This document shows, piece after piece, positions 1 through 38,542 of a stretch of 38,542 nt of DNA. Numbering within the stretch: position 1 is the first letter of the stretch; the number at the start of each line of letters is the position of its first letter. The notes under the pieces are model-generated. The model had not been told where the DNA came from. It saw only the letters and a program-made list of their open reading frames with translations, and did no database searches. Source of the stretch: a virus (taxonomy: Duplodnaviria; Heunggongvirae; Uroviricota; Caudoviricetes); the IMG/VR virus record IMGVR_UViG_2531839531_000011; one strand, 5' to 3'. A program made the position numbers and the translations under genes.

Positions 1-1020
1 TTAATCCCCCGTGGACACTGCGTGGACACTTACGCCACCTTTCAGCGGATTAAGGGCCACCGCATCCTGCAGGTAATCCGGTGCAAAATGTGCATATGCC
101 ATTGTTTGCTGAATGGTTGCGTGACCAAGAGTCTTCTGAAGCGCAATAATGTTTCCTCCGTTCATCACAAAATGGCTGGCGAACGTATGCCGCAGCACAT
201 GTGCAGCCTGGCCTTTTGGCAAATCGGGCTTAACTCTTTTCAGCGCCAGACAGAATTCCCGGTACTTCACCTCAAACAAGCCGCCTGTTTCTCTGGTTTT
301 GATCGCCTCACAAACTGCCTGCGAAATTGGCACCGTTCTCTTCCGACCATTTTTGGTTTCAAGAAACGTTACACGGTTATGAACTATCTGTTCACCACGA
401 AGCTTACAAGCTTCACTCCAGCGCGCCCCTGTGCTTAAACACAAAAGCGCAACACGCCAGTAGTCGCCCTCCAGTGTATCGAGCAATAGCGCTACTTCCT
501 TCTGGGACAGGAAAGCCATTTCTCGCGGGGATACATAAAGAATAGAAATCCCCCTTACCGGATGCTCTGCATCCCAGAGGCCTATTTTCTTCAGTACGGT
601 AAACATTCCGGATAACCGATTCATGTATCTGTTAGCAGATGACGGTTTCAATCCATCAGCTATCTTTTGAGAACGCCACGCGATAATTTTCAGCTTATCA
701 AGATCCACAGCCTGCATATCAGCGCCAAGCTCATTGATTATGTTGCGCAGTTGTTTTCGGTCTTCTTCCGCCTTACGCCTGTGCTGGCCGTGATACATCC
801 ACCACAACTCAAGCAAATCATTTAGCGTTCGACGATCACGGTAGCCCTGTATATATTCCCGCTTTTCAGCGTTCGCCATGATGTAGCGTTCAGTGGCCAC
901 CGCTACCGATTTTTTGTCAAATACCTTACGTACGCGCTTTCCCTTGCGTCCGTTCGGCCTGATGTCCAGCAAATAACGACCATCTTCGAGCTTCTTAATC
1001 GACATTGCGAAGCCCTCCAA
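1..1020 (-). CDS. int: Tyrosine integrase (P2 Int-like); true start may be the internal Met at MSIKKLEDGRY (~1005)
   Basis: 339-aa ORF; C-terminal catalytic-region residues (ARWSE, HVLRHTFASHF, LGHATIQQTMAYAHF) typical of phage integrases; position at prophage end next to repressor. Confidence 0.9.
   Translation of the reverse strand: MEGFAMSIKKLEDGRYLLDIRPNGRKGKRVRKVFDKKSVAVATERYIMANAEKREYIQGYRDRRTLNDLLELWWMYHGQHRRKAEEDRKQLRNIINELGADMQAVDLDKLKIIAWRSQKIADGLKPSSANRYMNRLSGMFTVLKKIGLWDAEHPVRGISILYVSPREMAFLSQKEVALLLDTLEGDYWRVALLCLSTGARWSEACKLRGEQIVHNRVTFLETKNGRKRTVPISQAVCEAIKTRETGGLFEVKYREFCLALKRVKPDLPKGQAAHVLRHTFASHFVMNGGNIIALQKTLGHATIQQTMAYAHFAPDYLQDAVALNPLKGGVSVHAVSTGD
11..28. other. Candidate attL core: 18-bp sequence gtggacactgcgtggaca, repeated directly (17/18) at 37363..37380; lies inside the last codons of int
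   Basis: Direct repeat seen by eye at both prophage ends; not statistically tested. Confidence 0.35.
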
Positions 1021-10864: not shown

Positions 10865-11272
10865 TTAAATATAATCTTCTTCGTAGTCGCTGATTAATTC
10901 ATTGCCATAATCAGACAGCAATTTCAAAGCAAAGGTAACTTCCTCAAGGGTAGCTATCCCCATTGCTGAAAACACCGTTAATTTAACCAGCAGCAGGGAG
11001 TTTGAAAGTTCGGAAGAGTTCATCATTAAAAATATTGATGCAGCCTGAAAAGCTGTGCGTTTATTCCCATCATGAAAGGCATGAGCCTTGGCTATACCAA
11101 TCAAATACATAGCAGCCAGAGCATGAATATCATCAACCCCTTCATAGTAGTGTAGTGTCCTGACGCGATTTAAAGCACCTTCAAGTAGCCCGTCATTGGC
11201 ATTTCCGCTCTGGGGTAAAGTTTCAGCATGGATACGTTCTACTTGTTCTTTTGACAAAAACACTATGTCCAT
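10865..11272 (-). CDS. doc: Doc (death-on-curing) Fic-family toxin
   Basis: 135 aa; Fic-type motif HAFHDGNKRTA; start overlaps antitoxin stop (TGATG). Confidence 0.85.
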   Translation of the reverse strand: MDIVFLSKEQVERIHAETLPQSGNANDGLLEGALNRVRTLHYYEGVDDIHALAAMYLIGIAKAHAFHDGNKRTAFQAASIFLMMNSSELSNSLLLVKLTVFSAMGIATLEEVTFALKLLSDYGNELISDYEEDYI

Positions 11273-11628
11273 CAGTTATCCTCAAGCTTTTTAATGATAT
11301 CCGCATGTTTTTCTCTTGTACGCTTCATTGCATCTTCAAAAGACAATCCTTTTTTTCTCTGTGCGACAAGAGCTGGATGACGTTTTTCCAGATCTCTCAC
11401 TGCATTTATTAAGAGTGGTTGCTTCATTTTGTTTATTTGATCCCGCAGTTTTTTGGTTTTGCCAAGGACAGCCCGTATTTCAGGACTAAGATCAGAACCA
11501 GCAAGAACAACATCCTTCCCTCCCTGCGCCGTGATAACGACACTGCCACCGGAAGAAAGGTAATCCAGAATTTCACTCAGGTTCTCACGAAATTCATCAT
11601 CAGTTACAGTTTTCATATTCATTTCCAT
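11272..11628 (-). CDS. phd: Phd/YefM-like antitoxin candidate (start may be a downstream Met)
   Basis: Small acidic-C-terminus protein immediately upstream of and coupled to doc. Confidence 0.6.
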   Translation of the reverse strand: MEMNMKTVTDDEFRENLSEILDYLSSGGSVVITAQGGKDVVLAGSDLSPEIRAVLGKTKKLRDQINKMKQPLLINAVRDLEKRHPALVAQRKKGLSFEDAMKRTREKHADIIKKLEDN

Positions 11629-11740: not shown

Positions 11741-12102
11741 ACTTTTTACCCTTCCGGCCCGCGTGGCGACTGGATCCGTCAAGGATCCGTGCGTGCACAA
11801 AAAAACGCGTTTTTTCTGCGCGCAGGTGACGGGGGAACAGCCCGCGTTTCAGGGGGTAAATAGCATTCCCTGAACGATGTCGCAGAGATACAACAGAATG
11901 GCTGTCTTTCTCACGCTGAGCGTGAAAAAGACGTGAGGTTTTTTGATTTGATGGGGTGGCAGATAAGGCCGTCAAAATCGCACTGAGGCGGCGAGAACAT
12001 GCAGTCAGCGCGATGGGATTGCGTAAGAGCCTGACCGCCGATGATGGCAATAAGCTGGAAGGCGTCGTGAAATTATCTGATTGATACAGGAGCTGGAGAG
12101 TC

Positions 12103-23362: not shown

Positions 23363-25729
23363 ATGAGTACCACAACACGAAAATTTAAAACCGTTATCAC
23401 CGATACGGGTGCAAAAAAATTAGCTCAGGCAGCCGCGCCAGATGGTAAGCCTGTCCGCCTGACTCATATGGCCGTGGGCGACGGTGGCGGCACGTTGCCC
23501 ACACCAGACAGTAAGCAGACCCGTCTGGTGCATGAGGTGTGGCGACACACTGTTAATCGCGTCATCCTGGACGCAACACATCAGAACCGCATTATTGCGG
23601 AGCTGGTTATTCCTCCTGAAACGGGCGGATTCTGGATCCGGGAAATTGGTGTATTTGATGAGCACGGCGATTTAATCGCGGTGGGCAATACTGCCGAAAG
23701 TTACAAGCCAGCCGTTGCCGAAGGGTCCGGTCGTGCACAAACGTTTCGCACCATTCTGACCGTATCCAGCACTGCCACCGTGGCGCTTACCGTGGATAAC
23801 ACCATGGTGATGGCCACAGTGGATTACGTGGATGACAAACTGAAAGAGCATGAACGGTCACGACATCACCCGGACGCCTCGCTGACCGCAAAAGGCTTTG
23901 TTCAACTCAGTAGCGCCACTAACAGCGTGTCTGAAACGCAGGCTGCAACGCCGAAAGCAGTAAAGGCAGCATATGACCTGGCTAATGGCAAATACACCGC
24001 ACAGGACGCTACCACTGCGCGGAAAGGGATAGTTCAGCTCAGTAGCGCCACCAACAGCACGTCTGAAACGCAGGCTGCAACGCCGAAAGCAGTAAAGACC
24101 GCGTATGATCTTGCTAACGGTAAATATACTGCGCAGGATGCCAGCACGACGCGAAAAGGCCTTGTCCAGCTCAGTAGCGCCACCAACAGCACGTCTGAAG
24201 CGCAGGCTGCAACGCCGAAAGCAGTAAAGGCCGCGTATGACCTTGCTAGCGCAAAATATACCGCTCAGGACGCCACGACGACACAAAAAGGGATAGTCCA
24301 GCTTAGTAGTGCCACCAACAGCACGTCTGAAACACTGGCCGCGACACCGAAAGCGGTTAAGGCGGTAATGGATGAAACGAACAAGAAAGCGCCTTTAAAC
24401 AGTCCTGCGCTGACCGGAACGCCAACAACGCCAACTGCGCCAAAAGGGACTAATAATACTCAGATCGCAAGCACGGCTTATGTGATGGCCGCGATTGCCG
24501 CACTTGTAGACTCGTCGCCTGACGCACTGAATACGCTGAACGAGCTGGCGGCGGCGCTGGGCAACGACCCGAATTTTGCGACCACCATGACTAACGCGCT
24601 TGCGGGTAAGCAACCGAAGGATACCACCCTGACGGCGCTGGCCGGGCTTGCTACTGCGGCAGACAGGTTTCCGTATTTTACGGGGAATGATGTCGCCAGC
24701 CTGGCAACTCTGACAAAAGTCGGGCGGGATATTCTTGCGAAATCGACCGTTGCCGCCGTTATCGAATACCTCGGTTTACAGGAAACGGTAAATCAGGCTT
24801 CTGGCGCATTACAGAAAAACCAGAACGGCGCAGATATTCCGGGAAAAGATACCTTCACCAAAAATATTGGGGCCTGCCGCGCATATAGCGCATGGCTGAA
24901 TATTGGTGGCGATAGTCAGACCTGGACAACTGCGCAATTTATTTCGTGGCTGGAGAGTCAGGGGGCATTTAACCATCCTTACTGGATGTGCAAAGGCTCA
25001 TGGGCTTATGCAAATAATAAGGTCATTACAGATACAGGTTGCGGAAATATTTGTCTTGCAGGTGCTGTGGTGGAAGTTATTGGCACTCGCGGCGCAATGA
25101 CCATACGCGTTACTACGCCGAGCACGTCCAGCGGCGGCGGAATTACTAACGCTCAATTCACCTATATTAATCATGGTGATGCTTATGCTCCTGGCTGGCG
25201 ACGAGACTACAACACGAAAAACCAGCAGCCTGCATTTGCTTTAGGGCAGACAGGAAGCAGGGTTGCAAATGATAAAGCTGTTGGCTGGAACTGGAATAGC
25301 GGTGTTTATGATGCAGATATCAAAGGCGCAACAGCATTAATACTCCACTTCAATATGAATACGGGGAGTTGCCCTGCTGTACAGTTCCGCGTGAATTACA
25401 GGAACGGCGGTATCCTTTATCGTTCAGCGCGTGATGGTTATGGCTTTGAAGATAACTGGTCAGCGTTTTACACCACAACCTACAAACCCTCTGCGGGGGA
25501 TGTTGGTGCATATACCAAAGCGGAATGTAACTCAAAGTTTATTACAGGTATTCGTCTGGGCGGTCTGTCATCTGTTCAGACATGGAATGGTCCCGGCTGG
25601 TCTGACAGGTCAGGTTATGTCGTTACGGGTTCAGTTAACGGAAACCGTGATGAATTAATTGATACAACTCAGGCAAGGCCAGTTCAGTATTGCATTAATG
25701 GAACGTGGTATAACGCAGGGAGTATTTAA
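23363..25729 (+). CDS. H: Tail fibre protein (P2 gpH-like) in the expressed orientation, with internal tandem repeats
   Basis: 788 aa; conserved N-terminus; ends ...INGTWYNAGSI before the chaperone gene. Confidence 0.9.
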   Translation: MSTTTRKFKTVITDTGAKKLAQAAAPDGKPVRLTHMAVGDGGGTLPTPDSKQTRLVHEVWRHTVNRVILDATHQNRIIAELVIPPETGGFWIREIGVFDEHGDLIAVGNTAESYKPAVAEGSGRAQTFRTILTVSSTATVALTVDNTMVMATVDYVDDKLKEHERSRHHPDASLTAKGFVQLSSATNSVSETQAATPKAVKAAYDLANGKYTAQDATTARKGIVQLSSATNSTSETQAATPKAVKTAYDLANGKYTAQDASTTRKGLVQLSSATNSTSEAQAATPKAVKAAYDLASAKYTAQDATTTQKGIVQLSSATNSTSETLAATPKAVKAVMDETNKKAPLNSPALTGTPTTPTAPKGTNNTQIASTAYVMAAIAALVDSSPDALNTLNELAAALGNDPNFATTMTNALAGKQPKDTTLTALAGLATAADRFPYFTGNDVASLATLTKVGRDILAKSTVAAVIEYLGLQETVNQASGALQKNQNGADIPGKDTFTKNIGACRAYSAWLNIGGDSQTWTTAQFISWLESQGAFNHPYWMCKGSWAYANNKVITDTGCGNICLAGAVVEVIGTRGAMTIRVTTPSTSSGGGITNAQFTYINHGDAYAPGWRRDYNTKNQQPAFALGQTGSRVANDKAVGWNWNSGVYDADIKGATALILHFNMNTGSCPAVQFRVNYRNGGILYRSARDGYGFEDNWSAFYTTTYKPSAGDVGAYTKAECNSKFITGIRLGGLSSVQTWNGPGWSDRSGYVVTGSVNGNRDELIDTTQARPVQYCINGTWYNAGSI
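23894..24375 (+). repeat. Tandem 132-bp (44-aa) tail-fibre repeats, about 3.6 copies (KG-VQLSSATNS-SETQAATPKAVKAAYDLANGKYTAQDATT)
   Basis: Repeats visible in both the H translation and the DNA. Confidence 0.75.
24759..24784. other. gix/hix-like inversion crossover site (TTATCGAATACCTCGGTTTACAGGAA) inside H
   Basis: 26 bp; inverted copy at 27686..27711 differs at two positions; resembles the Gin gix consensus. Confidence 0.7.
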
Positions 25730-25731
25730 TT

Positions 25732-26265
25732 ATGATGCACTTAAAAAACATTACTGCTGGCAATCCTAAAACAAAAGAGCAATACCAGCTAACAAAGCAA
25801 TTTAACATCAAATGGCTTTATTCAGATGATGGAAAAAACTGGTATGAGGAACAAAAGAATTTCCGGCCAGACACATTGAAAATGGCCTATGACCATAACG
25901 GCGTTATTATTTGTATTGAAAAGGATGTTTCAGCAATTAATCCGGAAGGCGCAAGCGTCGTTGAATTACCTGATATTACAGCAAATCGCCGTGCTGATAT
26001 TTCGGGTAAATGGATGTTCAAAGATGGCGCAGTGATAAAGCGAACTTATACCGGGGAGGAACAGAGGCAGCAGGCAGAGAATGAAAAGCAAAGCCTGTTG
26101 CAACTTGTCAGGGATAAAACCCAGCTATGGGACTCACAGCTACGGCTGGGCATCATTTCCGACGAGAATAAACAAAAATTAACCGAGTGGATGCTCTATG
26201 CGCAGAAAGTCGAATCCACAGACCCCTCCAGCCTGCCAGTAACATTTCCCGAACAACCTGAATGA
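25732..26265 (+). CDS. G: Tail fibre assembly chaperone (P2 gpG-like), expressed orientation
   Basis: 177 aa; N-terminus [22 protein letters not shown] shared with the inverted copy. Confidence 0.85.
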   Translation: MMHLKNITAGNPKTKEQYQLTKQFNIKWLYSDDGKNWYEEQKNFRPDTLKMAYDHNGVIICIEKDVSAINPEGASVVELPDITANRRADISGKWMFKDGAVIKRTYTGEEQRQQAENEKQSLLQLVRDKTQLWDSQLRLGIISDENKQKLTEWMLYAQKVESTDPSSLPVTFPEQPE

Positions 26266-26293
26266 GACAAGGCCCGATAGCGGGCCTTAATTT

Positions 26294-26824
26294 TTATTCA
26301 GGCTTTTGTGGCCATTCAGGATTTGCCCTATCCACACGGCTGACCAGAACACTGTAGCGTTCCCATGCTTCCAGTCGTGTGCGTTCCTCGTCTGTTGCCA
26401 TATTCAACCTGACAGCGCGTTCCAGCGGCTGGATGACTGATTCAGCTTCGGAAAGCAATGCGGCCTTTTGTGATTCGGCCTGTTGTTGCTGTTCGTCTGC
26501 CGTATAAATCCGTTTAACCACAGCTCCATCCTTAAACATCCACTTTCCTGAATCATCAGCGCGGCGGTTGGCTGTAATATCTGGAACCTCGACAACGCTA
26601 AAACCTTCGGGATTAAGCGTGGATGCATCTTTGGTGATGGCGACAATAATATTATTTGCATCGTAAACAATCTTTATTGTGTCTGGCTGAAAGTTTTTCA
26701 CTTCCTCATACCAGTTTTTACCGTCTTCTGTATATAACCAGATAACATCAAAATTCTTTGTTAGCTGATATTGCTCTTTTGTTTTTGGATTTCCTGACTT
26801 AATATTTTTTAAATGCTGCATCAT
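26294..26824 (-). CDS. Alternative tail fibre assembly chaperone, silent orientation
   Basis: 176 aa; paralogue of G on the opposite strand; convergent with G across a hairpin at 26270..26290. Confidence 0.8.
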
Positions 26825-27685
26825 TTACACCTGTGCGACGTTATACCATGTGCCATTGATGTATTTTTGTATTGGTCTGAAGATGGCTTCATCATCGCCA
26901 TCTACTTCACCAATGATTCTTAATCCGGTAATTGCGTGTCCGGCTTTTTCATAACGACCACCACGCGCCATCAATTGAACAACACGCGTACCCAGGCGAA
27001 CATCTTTTACATAGCGTGAATCAAAATTCCCCCAGTTGCTGGGCTGTATCTGACCGTTAACAGAAAATATTACCGAGTTATCTGTATTTCGCTGGCTATA
27101 GAAATGCCAGCCTGAATCATCACCAAGCTCTGCAACAGTTGGTCTTGATGAAGTGCCCCATAAATTAAACCCTACGTTCTTCGTGGAGTTGTTGGAGCTG
27201 GATAGCGAGAACTTTTTACTATCACCTGCCTGAATGTTTTTAAAAGCAATAGCCACTCCATTCTGAAAGCGGAATACTCGCTGACTATTAGCGTAAACAT
27301 CCAGAATACCATCACCATTCTGTTTAAATCCGGTATCATTATCACCAAGAACAATTGAGCTACCACCTAACGCATTCGTTGTACCAACTCCAAGACTGCC
27401 ATTAATGACGGCATTAACCAGAATATTCAGTGCATTCAATTTCAGCGTCATCAGGTCTTTTGTTGTGGTGCCCTAGCGGCTTCTCCATTTGAAATATTCA
27501 TTGCCGTTGTCGCCTGTTTCAAACCACATGAATGAATCAGTATCGCTGTCAGCATCATTTTTAAACCCAATCTTTGCCCAGTCAGTATTTCGAATCCAGG
27601 CAAGGATTGAGTCGTTTGCAAAAGTAAGCCCACCGGACAAGGTATCGCCATTCTTTTGCACCGCGTTCCTGGCCCTGTTTACCAT
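26825..27685 (-). pseudogene. Alternative tail-fibre variable domain interrupted by an in-frame TAG
   Basis: Two ORF pieces (27473..27685 and 26825..27451) in the same frame separated by an amber stop near 27473; ends ...INGTWYNVAQV like H. Confidence 0.6.
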
Positions 27686-27711
27686 TTCCTGTAAACCGAG
27701 GTTTTAGATAA
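27686..27711. other. gix/hix-like inversion crossover site, inverted copy (reverse complement TTATCTAAAACCTCGGTTTACAGGAA)
   Basis: Read directly. Confidence 0.7.
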
Positions 27712-27741
27712 TGGCGGTTTCTGGCCTGCATGGCATGATTT

Positions 27742-28356
27742 GTGCTTTTGGACGGGAGATTCAGCGTGCTGATTGGCTATGTAAGGGTATCAACAAATGA
27801 CCAGAATACAGACCTGCAACGAAACGCTCTTGTTTGTGCAGGATGTGAACAAATATTTGAAGATAAATTAAGCGGGACAAAGACAGACCGACCGGGATTA
27901 AAACGCGCTTTAAAGCGCCTTCAAAAAGGTGACACGCTGGTTGTCTGGAAACTGGATCGCCTCGGGCGAAGCATGAAACATCTGATTTCTCTCGTCGGGG
28001 AACTACGGGAGCGAGGGATTAATTTTCGCAGTCTGACCGACAGCATAGATACATCTTCTCCAATGGGGCGTTTTTTCTTCCACGTGATGGGTGCCCTGGC
28101 TGAAATGGAACGTGAATTAATTGTAGAGCGTACACTGGCCGGTCTGGCAGCAGCACGCGCACAAGGGCGCACAGGCGGACGTCGCCCGAAGCTGACAAAA
28201 GAACAGAATGAGCAAATAGCAAGGCTGATTAAAAACGGGCACGACAGAAAACAACTGGCAATAATTTACGGCATTGGTACATCGACGATTTATCGTTACC
28301 ACCCCGCAGGAGAATCAAGCGGAACAATTGAGAAGAGCAAACAAAATAACCGCTAA
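27742..28356 (+). CDS. Serine DNA invertase of the Gin/Cin/Pin/Hin family (probable GTG start at 27769, MLIGYVRVSTNDQ)
   Basis: Near-identical to recalled Gin over most of its length; catalytic-serine motif YVRVSTNDQ; C-terminal HTH. Confidence 0.9.
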   Translation: MLLDGRFSVLIGYVRVSTNDQNTDLQRNALVCAGCEQIFEDKLSGTKTDRPGLKRALKRLQKGDTLVVWKLDRLGRSMKHLISLVGELRERGINFRSLTDSIDTSSPMGRFFFHVMGALAEMERELIVERTLAGLAAARAQGRTGGRRPKLTKEQNEQIARLIKNGHDRKQLAIIYGIGTSTIYRYHPAGESSGTIEKSKQNNR

Positions 28357-35236: not shown

Positions 35237-35278
35237 AGAACTTAGAATAGCGGCAGCACCACGTTAAGGGAGGTCGCT

Positions 35279-35539
35279 ATGTTCCGTTGTCCGCTTTGTG
35301 GCGCATCTGCCCGTATCCGCACCAGTCGTCCGGAAAATGATTCAAACACCGTGCGGCAAAAGTATTACCAGTGTAACAACCTGGAATGCGGCGTATGCTT
35401 CTCAACACTGGAAGCCTTCCATAAATTCACATCGAAACACGCCTCCGGCGTTCACTCATCAGAAGGTATTCCGTGGCATGAGCTGCCAGCTTCACACAGG
35501 GGAAACAATCAGATGAGTTTGCCTTTACCTCAGAATTAA
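35279..35539 (+). CDS. ogr: Ogr/Delta-family zinc-finger late transcription activator
   Basis: MFRCPLCGASARIRTSR...YYQCNNLECGVCF matches the recalled Ogr Cys4 pattern. Confidence 0.85.
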   Translation: MFRCPLCGASARIRTSRPENDSNTVRQKYYQCNNLECGVCFSTLEAFHKFTSKHASGVHSSEGIPWHELPASHRGNNQMSLPLPQN

Positions 35540-35627
35540 CAGGCAGAATTGCCGGAGTAACAAAAAAGCGATAGATTACGTGCGGGTGCCTTTCGGCTGA
35601 TGGTCGGAGGGAATACCCGAAGGCCAG

Positions 35628-35813
35628 ATGTGGAAAGGCCCCGAGTCAACTTTAACGTTAACCCGAGGCCCTAACCATCTACCCTTAGCAAGTGATAGGT
35701 TAGCGCCTCCCCGAAAAAGGAGCAAGCGCTATGTCGCAAAAATCGCTTACGGCCATCACGTTCTGCGTGACGGCAATCCTCATCATCTGGATGCTGCACG
35801 GTTCGCTGTGTGA
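35628..35813 (+). CDS. Mok-like overlapping reading frame (modulator of hok translation)
   Basis: 61-aa ORF overlapping the hok-like start in another frame, as in hok/mok/sok loci. Confidence 0.4.
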   Translation: MWKGPESTLTLTRGPNHLPLASDRLAPPRKRSKRYVAKIAYGHHVLRDGNPHHLDAARFAV

Positions 35814-35871
35814 AATACGGATGAGCTTCTGGGGAGCGGAGTTTGCGGCGTTCTTACAGTGTAAGCAGTAA
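35731..35871 (+). CDS. Hok/Gef-family type I toxin (46 aa)
   Basis: MSQKSLTAITFCVTAILIIWMLHGSLCEIRMSFWGAEFAAFLQCKQ; hydrophobic helix plus SLCEIR signature; below ORF-track size cut-off. Confidence 0.7.
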   Translation: MSQKSLTAITFCVTAILIIWMLHGSLCEIRMSFWGAEFAAFLQCKQ

Positions 35872-35880
35872 GGAAACCGC

Positions 35881-35902
35881 GACGGGGGAGTAATCCCCCG
35901 TC
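35881..35902 (+). terminator. Hairpin GACGGGGGA-gtaa-TCCCCCGTC at the 3' end of the hok-like transcript
   Basis: 9-bp perfect stem read directly. Confidence 0.4.
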
Positions 35903-36048
35903 AATCAGTTGCCAGGATAAGGTCGATAAGGCATCCTGTCTCACTCTATACCAGCTAATCAATTGACACATATCAATAAAAAGCCTGATAAAATCAAAAT
36001 GTTTTGTTACAAATGTCAGCTAGTAGAGGGCCAAAGGAGGCAGATTAT

Positions 36049-36381
36049 ATGGCATTAATCAAATGTCCTGAATGCCAGAAAGAGGTGATCGATTCAGTAT
36101 TGTCTTGCCCTGCTTGTGGCAAACAACTGAAAAATCTTAAACGCTCATTTTTTGGAGAACTCATTAAGTGTTTTTTTATATTATTTAATGTTTTTATAAT
36201 CTACACGATTTGTATTGGGCTAAGAGAGGTGGGTGAAATAATAAACAACGCCACATCCGATGCCGAAAAAGCCGGTACAGTTATTGGTACGGGCTTAGGT
36301 TTAATTGCTATTGGAGGCTTATGGGTTATTGGCAATATCATTATCGGAAATTTAGTATTTCTTACTAAACCAAAGGGATAA
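36049..36381 (+). CDS. Zinc-ribbon (CPEC...CPAC) membrane protein, AT-rich cargo gene
   Basis: AGGAGG RBS before MALIKCPECQ; N-terminal Cys4 ribbon followed by two or three hydrophobic helices. Confidence 0.55.
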   Translation: MALIKCPECQKEVIDSVLSCPACGKQLKNLKRSFFGELIKCFFILFNVFIIYTICIGLREVGEIINNATSDAEKAGTVIGTGLGLIAIGGLWVIGNIIIGNLVFLTKPKG

Positions 36382-36385
36382 CAAA

Positions 36386-37279
36386 ATGAAAAATGTGATT
36401 ATTTCTATAGGCGCATCATTTATATCAATTAGTGTGCTACCTGCTCACGCAGCAACTGAGCATAATAACTTTAAGTCATCACTCCAGTGCCGAGCAATAG
36501 AAAATAATAAAGAAAGACTTTCTTGTTATGATAAGTCAATACAACCGACTCGAACGACAGTTGCTGAAAAATTCGAAAGCAGAGATCAATGCCCTGATGA
36601 GAAAGATGATGACAGACGTTTATCTTGTTATGACCGTTTTTTTTCTCCAACATTTACTCCGCCTGTAAGCTCAAAATCTAAAGTGAAACAGCTAGTAACA
36701 ACAGAGACTCAGCAACCAAATCTTTCTGAGATATCTAAATGTCGAGCAGAAAACGATAAAGAAACTAGAGTAAACTGCTACGATAAACTATTTCCACAGG
36801 AAAAAGCTACGCAATCTAAATCAAAATTAGAGAAAGCCACAGACTCAGGAAAATGGCACACATCCATTACTACATCGCCAATTGATGATTCGAAAAATGT
36901 AATTTTATCGTTAGAAAGTGATGATTATATAAGAACTCCATTTGGAGAAGCGGTTACCCCTACTCTGTTTATAGCTTGCCGAGAAAAGAAAACCGAAGTA
37001 TTTCTTAATTGGGATGTATATTTAGGCCTTGAACAAACCAGCATGCTGTATCGCCTTGATAAACAGAAAGCAGTTGAGCGAAACTGGCTAGTATCTACAG
37101 ATACAAAGGCTGTTTTTTATAAAGGCAATGACATTAACTTCATCAGAAAACTAGCCAACTCAAACAAAATGTATGCAAGAATAACCCCTTATAATGAAAG
37201 CCCTGTAAGTGCAACTTTCAATTTAAACGGCCTGTCAACCACGCTAAAACCGCTTCAAGAAGCCTGTAACTGGAAATAG
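36386..37279 (+). CDS. Secreted protein with three Cys-containing repeats (C-x10-R-L/V-S/N-CYDK/R) and a C-terminal domain, AT-rich cargo gene
   Basis: 297 aa; signal peptide ...VLPAHAAT; repeats at RLSCYDK, RLSCYDR, RVNCYDK. Confidence 0.6.
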   Translation: MKNVIISIGASFISISVLPAHAATEHNNFKSSLQCRAIENNKERLSCYDKSIQPTRTTVAEKFESRDQCPDEKDDDRRLSCYDRFFSPTFTPPVSSKSKVKQLVTTETQQPNLSEISKCRAENDKETRVNCYDKLFPQEKATQSKSKLEKATDSGKWHTSITTSPIDDSKNVILSLESDDYIRTPFGEAVTPTLFIACREKKTEVFLNWDVYLGLEQTSMLYRLDKQKAVERNWLVSTDTKAVFYKGNDINFIRKLANSNKMYARITPYNESPVSATFNLNGLSTTLKPLQEACNWK

Positions 37280-37309
37280 TATAAATCATGCGGCTAAGCC
37301 ACAATCACA

Positions 37310-37347
37310 GATAACACAAAGCCCGTGAAAACGGGCTTTGTGTTATC
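37310..37347. terminator. Strong bidirectional terminator: 16-bp perfect inverted repeat GATAACACAAAGCCCG-tgaaaa-CGGGCTTTGTGTTATC
   Basis: Read directly, just after the cargo genes. Confidence 0.6.
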
Positions 37348-37362
37348 TATAACTCGAAAATG

Positions 37363-37380
37363 TGGTCACTGCGTGGACAT
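37363..37380. other. Candidate attR core (gtggtcactgcgtggaca), direct repeat of 11..28
   Basis: 17/18 match to the sequence at the int 3' end; lies between cargo genes and host flk. Confidence 0.35.
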
Positions 37381-37546
37381 GCGCCGATACAAATCCTTTT
37401 ATATCAAAAAGTTAAATCAACATCTTTTTCATCAACAAGGATTTTCACGTTTGTGTTACCTGTATGAGACGAGAGTTAACCGGACAAGTGTGCCATAATC
37501 TCGCGGCCAGGCATACTTGCGAAGATTTCAGGTATAAGGATACGTA

Positions 37547-38542
37547 ATGATACAACCTATTTCCGGCCCTCCTCCTGGGCAACCACCAGGTCAGGGAGAT
37601 AACCTGCCGTCTGGCGCGGGCAATCAGCCTTTATCCAGTCAGCAACGTACTTCGCTGGAAAGCTTAATGACGAAAGTGACCTCACTGACGCAACAGCAAA
37701 GAGCAGAACTGTGGGCGGGTATCAGGCACGATATTGGTCTGTCGGGAGATTCACCGCTGCTTTCGCGTCACTTCCCTGCCGCTGAGCATAATCTGGCGCA
37801 ACGTCTGCTGGCCGCGCAAAAAAGCCATTCTGCCCGCCAGCTTTTAGCGCAATTAGGGGAGTATTTACGTCTGGGGAATAATCGTCAGGCGGTCACGGAT
37901 TATATCCGTCATAACTTTGGTCAGACGCCGCTGAATCAGCTCTCACCGGAGCAATTAAAAACCATTCTCACCCTGTTGCAGGAAGGGAAGATGGTTATTC
38001 CGCAACCACAGCAGCGCGAGGCGACCGACCGTCCTTTATTACCGGCGGAGCACAATGCGCTAAAACAGCTGGTGACCAAACTTGCGGCGGCAACGGGGGA
38101 ACCCAGCAAACAGATCTGGCAATCGATGCTGGAACTTTCCGGGGTGAAAGATGGCGAGTTAATTCCAGCGAAACTGTTTAACCATCTGGTGACCTGGCTA
38201 CAGGCGCGTCAGACGCTAAGCCAGCAAAATACGCCGACGCTGGAATCACTACAGATGACGCTAAAACAACCTTTAGATGCCAGTGAACTGGCGGCGTTAT
38301 CGGCATATATCCAGCAAAAATATGATCTTTCTGCGCAATCATCGCTTTCTTCTGCCCAGGCCGAGGATATTCTTAATCAGCTTTATCAACGGCGGGTTAA
38401 AGGGATTGATCCGCGTGTTATGCAACCGCTGCTTAATCCTTTTCCACCGATGATGGACACGTTGCAAAATATGGCAACGCGTCCCGCGCTGTGGATACTG
38501 TTAGTCGCGATTATCCTGATGCTGGTCTGGCTGGTTCGTTAA
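37547..38542 (+). CDS. flk: Host flagellar regulator Flk (C-terminally membrane-anchored)
   Basis: 331 aa; N-terminus MIQPISGPPPGQPPGQGDNLPSG and C-terminal hydrophobic anchor match my recollection of E. coli Flk. Confidence 0.75.
   Translation: MIQPISGPPPGQPPGQGDNLPSGAGNQPLSSQQRTSLESLMTKVTSLTQQQRAELWAGIRHDIGLSGDSPLLSRHFPAAEHNLAQRLLAAQKSHSARQLLAQLGEYLRLGNNRQAVTDYIRHNFGQTPLNQLSPEQLKTILTLLQEGKMVIPQPQQREATDRPLLPAEHNALKQLVTKLAAATGEPSKQIWQSMLELSGVKDGELIPAKLFNHLVTWLQARQTLSQQNTPTLESLQMTLKQPLDASELAALSAYIQQKYDLSAQSSLSSAQAEDILNQLYQRRVKGIDPRVMQPLLNPFPPMMDTLQNMATRPALWILLVAIILMLVWLVR

Follow-up and report, generated by a model that had tools for sequence, protein, structure and literature searches.

The window (the whole 38,542-nt stretch of viral DNA analysed here) very probably carries a complete tail-fibre host-range switch of the Gin/Cin/Pin type in an intact P88-like prophage, in which the silent fibre 3' end, Sv', is broken by a real TAG codon. 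The features of the switch are listed in Table 1. A 2.95-kb segment between two crossover sites holds one variable fibre end with its chaperone on the plus strand (Sv and U) and an alternative pair on the minus strand (U' and Sv').

Table 1. Features of the invertible tail-fibre locus, in window coordinates.
Feature	Position	Strand	Description
Sc, constant part of the tail-fibre gene (P2 H / Mu S equivalent)	23363..24772	+	Codons 1-470; ends inside gixL
gixL crossover site	24759..24784	+	TTATCGAATACC-TC-GGTTTACAGGAA; inside the fibre reading frame; exact pattern match
Sv, variable fibre 3' end expressed in the present orientation	24773..25729	+	318 aa
U, tail-fibre assembly chaperone paired with Sv	25732..26265	+	Pfam Caudo_TAP, E = 6.5e-36; 95% identical to Mu U'
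Terminator-like G+C-rich hairpin followed by a T run	26269..26288	+	8 pairs, 6 of them G-C; mid-segment, between the convergent cassettes
U', chaperone of the silent cassette	26294..26824	-	Pfam Caudo_TAP, E = 1e-36; 98% identical to P7 U', 94% to Mu U
Sv', silent alternative fibre 3' end	26825..27697	-	290 codons from the crossover; TAG at codon 75 thereafter
In-frame amber TAG (CTA on the plus strand)	27473..27475	-	CAG (Gln) in the closest intact copy, ETEC H10407
gixR crossover site	27686..27711	-	TTATCTAAAACC-TC-GGTTTACAGGAA, as read on the minus strand
Gin-family serine DNA invertase	27766..28356	+	196 aa, GTG start; just outside the segment
Stretch matching the enhancer annotated in P7 cin (nt 19-86 of the gene)	27784..27851	+	Putative enhancer, by homology

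Judged from its sequence, the window is an intact E. coli prophage of the P88-like kind (Xuanwuvirus, Peduoviridae, P2 family). A contig of E. coli 2726800, from assembly GCA_000356625, matches it at 100% identity along the 12.6 kb that were compared, and its first 24.7 kb show 95.5% DNA identity to P88 over 83% of their length. In the comparison of window and P88 proteins, the P88 proteins with a match, among them every structural protein, keep their full length in the window except for the Sv' part of the fibre, and a few small early-region genes had no match. At the DNA level, the segment matches the G/C segments of Mu, D108, P7 and P88 with 90-96% identity.

The 26-bp crossover sites were located with the gix pattern TTATCNAANACCTCGGTTTACAGGAA. 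The pattern derives from the gix consensus, which was then checked in the Mu and P7 records against the DNA on either side of the segment. It has two exact matches in the window, gixL and gixR, where 100 shuffles gave an expectation of 0. The two sites are inverted, lie within repeat arms of 40 nt (24753-24792 and 27678-27717) that are 90% complementary, and have the same central dinucleotide TC. They are the sole such sites, since no third gix site was found in the window with up to three mismatches allowed; without further crossover sites inside the segment even at that tolerance, a multi-inversion system of the Min or shufflon-like kind was rejected. Across the crossover, the constant part and Sv read ...VIEYL/GLQETVNQ and the silent side reads ...II(stop)NL/GLQEMVNRA. 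Because the frames on both sides agree, an exchange at the central TC would give an in-frame fusion.

The expressed fibre ORF (23363-25729 (+), 788 aa) has Sv as its 3' end. Its Sc part contains a tail-collar N-terminal domain and four Phage_fiber_2 repeats (Pfam PF12571 and PF03406), with 132-nt tandem repeats at 23890-24361. Sv shows 94% amino acid identity to Mu S' (the G(-) fibre) and P7 Sv, and 96% to the C-terminus of the ETEC H10407 side tail fibre. The hairpin behind U is likely the transcription terminator of the expressed cassette. On the silent side, the fibre 3' end occupies 26825-27685 (-) up to gixR and is a mosaic, with the first ~110 aa similar to Mu S and P88 H and the last ~76 aa similar to P7 Sv' and P88 H. 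It is 98% identical to an intact 278-aa copy in ETEC H10407, from which it differs by 16 synonymous, 6 missense and 1 nonsense changes, and 97% identical to the expressed 760-aa fibre of NCCP 15734. Each fibre 3' part precedes its own Caudo_TAP chaperone, and both orientations are in frame.

The invertase contains the Pfam domains Resolvase (E = 1.3e-50) and HTH_7 (E = 1.4e-13), and is 82% identical to Mu Gin, 73% to P7 Cin and 97% to the P88 invertase. Within the first ~119 residues it has a single difference from Gin, and the C-terminal third diverges. The active-site Ser9 is present, and the motif YVRVS(9)TNDQ is invariant among the invertase, Gin, Cin and the P88 invertase. The ORF lister extends the gene to a GTG at 27742; alignment with these three proteins places the start codon further in, at GTG 27766. 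Over its first 135 nt, which include the enhancer-like stretch, the gene has only 2 differences from Mu gin. A sigma-70 scan between gixR and the invertase start codon gave no convincing promoter. Weak expression is expected for such invertases. Overall, the anatomy agrees with the original prediction. The two inverted gix-like sites were exact matches to the pattern at the positions given in Table 1, and the ~2.95-kb segment with two convergent sets of variable domain and chaperone was recovered from the ORFs, Pfam and homology. The Gin-family invertase just outside the segment was identified by its domains, Ser9 and its identity to Mu Gin, and the proposed in-frame fusion of the constant part of H to the alternative domain follows from the frames at the gix sites.

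In the silent cassette, the 3' ORF (26825-27472) shares its frame with the upstream part, and the translation ...YFKWRSR(stop)GTTTKDLMTLKLN is identical to that reported in the original prediction, which had placed a TAG near 27473. A wrong frame in that hand translation was considered and rejected; the frame is right. Codon 80 is TAG here and CAG in ETEC H10407. Gln occupies the site in 20/20 related proteins examined that span it, as well as in Mu S and P7 Sv'; one of the spanning relatives is an intact 271-aa protein with the same ...RQGTTTKDLMTLKL context. The comparison with intact homologues proposed at the outset thus gave Gln in all relatives examined and CAG in the closest. The TAG allele is rare. 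By megablast, the 41-mer that covers the site, in its TAG form, occurred in 0 of the 5,426 complete E. coli genomes, and its CAG form in 13 genomes. The exact TAG 41-mer had no match in the IMG/VR viral contigs or in the GTDB species-representative genomes. The 208-aa ORF that follows the stop was found in only 2 contigs in the large collection searched. The allele recurs in another draft assembly, GCA_000356845 of E. coli 2854350. Over 3,130 nt it has 21 mismatches to the window, including two within Sv', and both TAG assemblies encode identical 208-aa and 70-aa products. From these alignments, we read the TAG as a real and rare single-base change from CAG (Gln), an ordinary loss-of-function variant.

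The original prediction had allowed that the stop might be suppressed or might be a sequencing error. The idea that a sequencing or assembly error hides an intact CAG cassette is helped by the absence of the allele from the complete E. coli genomes, IMG/VR and the GTDB representatives, and by its confinement to two draft assemblies whose accession numbers are close together and which may stem from one project. On the other hand, the two assemblies are distinct sequences that nevertheless have the TAG in common, and the site is not in a homopolymer. A C-to-T transition is also a common type of spontaneous mutation, which counts against an error. The recurrence of the same allele in a second, non-identical assembly makes a sequencing error unlikely. 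General prophage decay was rejected as the source of the stop, since none of the P88 structural genes is shortened in the window. Apart from the TAG there is a single in-frame stop, and it falls in the counterpart of a 47-aa hypothetical ORF.

Natural isomers of the segment exist. In NCCP 15734, the flanks are 98.7-99.4% identical to the window in one orientation and the segment (24755-27711) lies in the other, so that its intact 760-aa fibre uses the Sv' homologue. The segment of phage P88 is likewise opposite to that of the window, and the breakpoints of both fall inside the gix sites. The TAG-bearing contig of E. coli 2854350 (3.4 kb) has invertase flank at both ends and contains both junction types, including the recombinant junction between the Sv half-gix and the invertase half-gix. 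The presence of both junction types on this contig suggests active inversion of the segment, although a pair of related prophages in 2854350, as opposed to a mixed population, could in principle also account for them. The source-strain contig passes straight through the segment, in a single orientation. In draft assemblies, short contigs that end in invertase flank on both sides can usefully point to a segment that may be flipping.

The serine invertase is expected to recombine the two inverted gix sites at their central TC, presumably assisted, by analogy with Mu, by an enhancer in the 5' part of its own gene and by Fis from the host. The constant 5' part (codons 1-470) would stay outside, and inversion would set either Sv and U or Sv' and U' behind it. 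In the present orientation, the phage is predicted to make a 788-aa fibre with a tip of the Mu G(-) type. In the flipped state, translation predicts a 544-aa fibre instead of 760 aa, in agreement with the truncated fibre that had been foreseen. This product would lack the C-terminal 216 residues, which in related fibres form the receptor-binding tip and the part targeted by the U' chaperone, and the flipped phase would therefore be expected to be fibre-defective. With such a defect, the prophage would probably be confined, in effect, to a single working host range. The mutation could persist in the silent cassette despite the loss of the tip, because tail-fibre genes are silent in the lysogen and counter-selection would act only on phage from the flipped orientation.

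The retention of the TAG allele across 21 SNPs of divergence in the 3.1-kb segment means that it may be tolerated or bypassed, and we weighed whether a real stop still leaves the flipped phase infective, by a suppressor tRNA, by read-through, or by re-initiation at ATG 27451 to give a two-piece fibre. A supE-type amber suppressor would put back the original Gln, and the in-frame ATG, seven codons (21 nt) past the stop, opens the 208-aa ORF. Besides the persistence of the allele through some divergence, the remaining changes in Sv' are mostly synonymous; however, this bias came from the comparison with an intact relative and is largely older than the mutation. A search of the window for a suppressor tRNA found no tRNA gene, no Shine-Dalgarno-like sequence precedes ATG 27451, and we found no precedent for a split Mu-type S fibre. 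To our knowledge, natural E. coli isolates are generally not amber suppressors, which also counts against a bypass. Altogether, we consider a bypass very unlikely.

Another idea is that the host has taken over the switch, with the truncated fibre or the 208-aa fragment serving the cell, for instance by blocking the adsorption of other phages. There is a precedent in the cryptic prophage e14, where PinQ inverts the P segment and the resulting StfE2 chimera blocks T2 adsorption (PMC12529663). The prophage here, however, is not cryptic, as its replication, head, tail and lysis genes are all intact, and its fibre genes sit in a late phage operon that shows no sign of being expressed in the lysogen. 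The extreme rarity of the TAG allele gives no sign of selection for it, and we regard such a takeover as extremely improbable. The wider notion that the amber is kept with a functional flipped phase, whether through a two-piece fibre, low-level read-through or an off or decoy phase useful to the lysogen, seems highly improbable; an off or decoy form would possibly mean fibre-less particles or a truncated protein that helps the lysogen. The sole hints of a kept amber are the occurrence of the allele in two assemblies that differ at 21 positions and the in-frame ATG seven codons on. We retain the reading of the TAG as an ordinary loss-of-function change in a complete switch.

The switch itself is a classic host-range inversion of the Mu/P1 type, and such switches have been described before in P2-family prophages, P88-like ones included. 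The Mu G segment with Gin (also in D108 and SfMu) has the same arrangement, with Sc outside, Sv-U and U'-Sv' convergent in a ~3-kb segment, 26-bp gix sites of which the left one lies in the fibre frame, and an adjoining outside invertase that also begins with GTG; the aligned parts of the segment DNA (76-83% of the query) are ~92-93% identical. By contrast with the transposable Mu-like phages, the phage here is a temperate member of the P2 family (P88-like), the constant part of its fibre is of the P2 H type (tail-collar N-terminus and fibre repeats), and the middle of its silent Sv' is unrelated to Mu S and carries a nonsense codon. The P1/P7 C segment with Cin follows the same switch logic, and P7 Sv' shares the last ~70 aa of Sv' here, but the P1/P7 segment is the longer one, at about 4 kb in the P7 record. 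That record also lists one cassette's U chaperone gene as two pieces, Ua and Ub, so there is a precedent for a disrupted-looking gene in such a segment.

P88 and related Xuanwuvirus prophages such as NCCP 15734 have the same phage type and gene order as the window. Most P88 proteins are 90-100% identical, and the segment, the invertase and the converging block of tail genes are at matching places. In P88 and NCCP 15734, however, the Sv' counterpart is intact and, as deposited, expressed; the window integrase is only 43% identical to that of P88, and the immunity region differs. The e14 P segment with Pin and the loci of P2-like E. coli prophages also use a serine invertase to swap fibre 3' ends. 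Unlike the prophage here, which looks complete, e14 is a defective lambdoid remnant with a 1.8-kb segment (PMC12529663). In invertible fibre loci of E. coli prophages, both orientations coexist in cultures, as found by sequencing and PCR (PMC4272514).

Against this family background, in which both alternative 3' parts carry complete fibre tips, the interrupted Sv' is a defect of one member and no departure from the Mu S/U-type design. The finding has little import beyond annotation, being a textbook system whose unexpressed cassette has acquired a rare point mutation; should the stop turn out to be bypassed, the locus would offer a minor curiosity about split tail fibres. For annotation, the small ORFs at 27476-27685 and 26825-27451 belong together as a single disrupted cassette for the silent fibre end and should not be listed as two genes.

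The region around the tail-fibre genes was inspected by direct reading of the sequence, ORF listing and a repeat search. A 40-nt inverted repeat, whose arms are 90% complementary, contains the 26-bp pattern TTATCNAANACCTCGGTTTACAGGAA; this pattern has two exact matches in the 38.5-kb window, with 0 expected in shuffled sequence. No third crossover site was found in the 38.5-kb window, even allowing three mismatches. The central dinucleotide is identical in both sites, each read in its own orientation (TTATCGAATACC-TC-GGTTTACAGGAA and TTATCTAAAACC-TC-GGTTTACAGGAA). The original prediction of inverted gix-like sites enclosing two convergent sets of variable domain and chaperone, with a Gin-family invertase just outside, was thus borne out by the exact pattern matches, the two fibre 3' ends and two chaperones on opposite strands, and the recombinase. 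Across the 132-nt tandem repeats of the constant fibre shaft, the window exceeds phage P88 in length by about 133 nt, which is consistent with one extra repeat unit.

Features of the invertible fibre segment and its surroundings
Feature	Coordinates	Strand	Remark
Integrase	1-1020	-	
Protein of 211 aa	1102-1737	-	two helix-turn-helix domains
Fic/Doc and Phd/YefM-like pair	10865-11628	-	135 aa and 118 aa
P88 gp21 homologue	11793-11933	+	47-aa hypothetical protein, in-frame stop
Tail-fibre ORF	23363-25729	+	788 aa; 3' 318 codons = expressed tip (Sv); ORF listing, domain search
Tandem repeats	23890-24361		encode Phage_fiber_2 repeats
Inverted repeat, arms	24753-24792 and 27678-27717		
Crossover site gixL	24759-24784	+	
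Chaperone (U)	25732-26265	+	Caudo_TAP; ORF listing, domain search
Hairpin	26269-26288		G+C-rich, T tail; between the two chaperone genes
Second chaperone (U')	26294-26824	-	Caudo_TAP; ORF listing, domain search
Second fibre 3' end (Sv')	26825-27685	-	silent; ORF listing, domain search
Amber codon TAG	27475-27473	-	in Sv'
Crossover site gixR	27686-27711	-	
Serine recombinase	27766-28356		196 aa, GTG start, just outside segment; Resolvase and HTH_7 domains
Right flank	35240-38542		E. coli chromosome

Inversions in E. coli prophages have been covered before (PMC4272514, PMC12529663), and judged by its sequence this switch is of an already known type, nearly identical to characterised examples. 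Along 76-83% of its length, the 3.1-kb region matched P88, D108, P7, RCS47, D6, P1, SfMu and Mu at approximately 89-95% identity; over its full length, it matched side-tail-fibre loci of ETEC strains at 96%. The expressed Sv and U share 94-95% protein identity with the G(-) set of Mu, S' and U'; against P7 Sv, the value for Sv is 94%. On the silent side, U' has its counterparts in P7 U' (98% identity) and Mu U (94%), and Sv' has a mosaic make-up. The opening ~110 residues of Sv' are similar to Mu S and P88 H and the closing ~76 to P7 Sv' and P88 H; close relatives of the part in between occur only in E. coli prophages. The invertase shares 82% identity with Gin, shows a single difference from it within the first ~119 residues and retains Ser9. 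The Mu gin gene differs at two positions in the first 135 nt, and the Cin enhancer, as annotated in the P7 record, falls within the stretch matching these 135 nt. The P7 record also holds a further disrupted-looking gene within an invertible fibre segment: in one cassette, the gene for the U chaperone (2427-2960) is annotated as two pieces, Ua and Ub.

Related genomes carry the segment in the other orientation. In a prophage of E. coli NCCP 15734, both flanks share one orientation relative to the window (98.7-99.4% identity), while the segment (24755-27711) aligns in the opposite orientation, with breakpoints inside the repeat. That prophage encodes an intact fibre of 760 aa in which the Sv' homologue follows directly on the constant part. 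The P88 segment is likewise flipped relative to the window. Between the window and NCCP 15734 the segment itself is only 96.1% identical, below its flanks, which suggests that fibre cassettes have been exchanged separately by recombination. Contig APZL01000086.1 of E. coli 2854350 (3,387 nt) carries the segment between two copies of the invertase-side flank. The junction on one side is that of the window; on the other lies a recombinant junction, ...ACCGTTTCCTGTAAACCGAGG|TTTTAGATAATGGCGG..., combining an Sv-side with an invertase-side half-site. Because the exact stretch common to both crossover sites is only 18 nt, this junction most likely represents real reads from the other orientation, though a second related prophage in this strain may be its source. 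A flank at both contig ends would be expected from an assembler when both orientations are present in the culture, and such short contigs could help to spot active inversions in draft genomes.

The reading frames agree across the crossover (...AAVIEYL|GLQETVNQA on the expressed side, ...II*NL|GLQEMVNRA on the minus strand of the silent side), so a crossover at the central TC would place Sv' in frame behind codon 470 of the constant part, as had been predicted from hand translation. From the crossover, Sv' runs for 74 codons to the TAG, which lies where it had been claimed; past this stop, the same frame stays open for another 216 codons, up to the natural TAA. The flipped product is predicted to be 544 aa, against 760 aa for the intact NCCP 15734 equivalent.

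The amber codon is probably a real, rare loss-of-function point mutation. Compared with its closest intact copy, in ETEC H10407, Sv' shows 97.4% DNA identity and 23 differing positions: 16 synonymous, 6 missense and one CAG to TAG. The comparison with intact homologues proposed alongside the original prediction gave Gln at this position in H10407, Mu S, P7 Sv' and all 20 related database proteins spanning the site. One of the 20, of 271 aa, shares the ...RQGTTTKDLMTLKL context and in effect represents the unmutated allele. By megablast against 5,426 complete E. coli genomes, a 41-mer centred on the mutant base matched none, and its wild-type counterpart matched 13. Since megablast needs a word of 28 exact bases, which a central mismatch in a 41-mer removes, this comparison is allele-specific. 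The mutant 41-mer also had no match in IMG/VR or GTDB representative genomes.

The predicted truncation had been offered with two provisos, suppression of the stop and sequencing error. In a large assembly collection, the 208-aa ORF after the stop appeared on two contigs only, from strains 2726800 and 2854350. Their TAG-bearing copies differ at 21 of 3,130 positions and are therefore not one sequence deposited twice, making a random base-calling error unlikely; that proviso largely falls away. An escape from the stop, whether through suppression, read-through or a fresh start of translation at the ATG at 27451, is unlikely too and, if anything, slightly less probable than sequencing error. Direct reading revealed no Shine-Dalgarno-like sequence ahead of this ATG; no tRNA genes were found in the window. 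Co-option of the truncated fibre by the host, for which the PinQ/StfE2 analogy speaks, would be the most improbable reading. Other E. coli assemblies encode short silent-cassette proteins of 143 aa (P0008; three contigs, not marked partial) and 125 aa (P0011; one of two records marked partial). Truncated silent cassettes may thus occur repeatedly, though stops, frameshifts or mere gene calling could each account for the short forms.

From its sequence, the surrounding prophage is complete-looking. Its first 24.7 kb share approximately 95% DNA identity with Escherichia phage P88 (Xuanwuvirus, Peduoviridae) and relatives, and at the right end the matches are to E. coli chromosomes, with flk and a TagO/VasI gene of type VI secretion among the genes there. 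Over 12.6 kb around the switch, the window shows 100% identity to contig AQFE01000030.1 (assembly GCA_000356625.2), from E. coli 2726800 according to protein records. A few small P88 early-region genes had no match; the P88 proteins with a match are full length, including all structural ones (the set covers portal, terminase, capsid, lysis, baseplate, sheath, tube, tape measure and gpD); it does not look like a decaying remnant. Among the P88 ORFs, a stop otherwise occurs only in the gp21 homologue, which is perhaps not a genuine gene. Identity to the P88 integrase is just 43%, most other genes exceeding 90%, so a different attachment site is used. The 211-aa protein resembles a repressor formed by tandem duplication or fusion: the C repressor of P88 (93 aa) aligns to it twice (36% and 33% identity). 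A Fic/Doc-family protein follows a Phd/YefM-like antitoxin (Pfam score slightly under the curated cut-off) in a stretch that separates the partition genes from the portal gene and to which no P88 protein maps; together they resemble a toxin-antitoxin cargo module.

In Mu, the invertase, Fis and an enhancer bring the gix sites together and the segment inverts. By analogy with the established systems of Mu, P1 and e14, we infer that the invertase, Fis and enhancer would act likewise on the two gix sites here, inverting the segment, and that both orientations would build up in lysogens. On induction, each genome would make whichever tip and chaperone stand behind the constant part. One orientation would give a Mu-G(-)-like tip, and the other a fibre cut off after residue 544, without the distal tip. 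These late genes are silent in the prophage, so the nonsense mutation would be selected against only during phage production from the flipped orientation. The likeliest consequence would be that the second host range is lost and a fraction of the progeny is defective.
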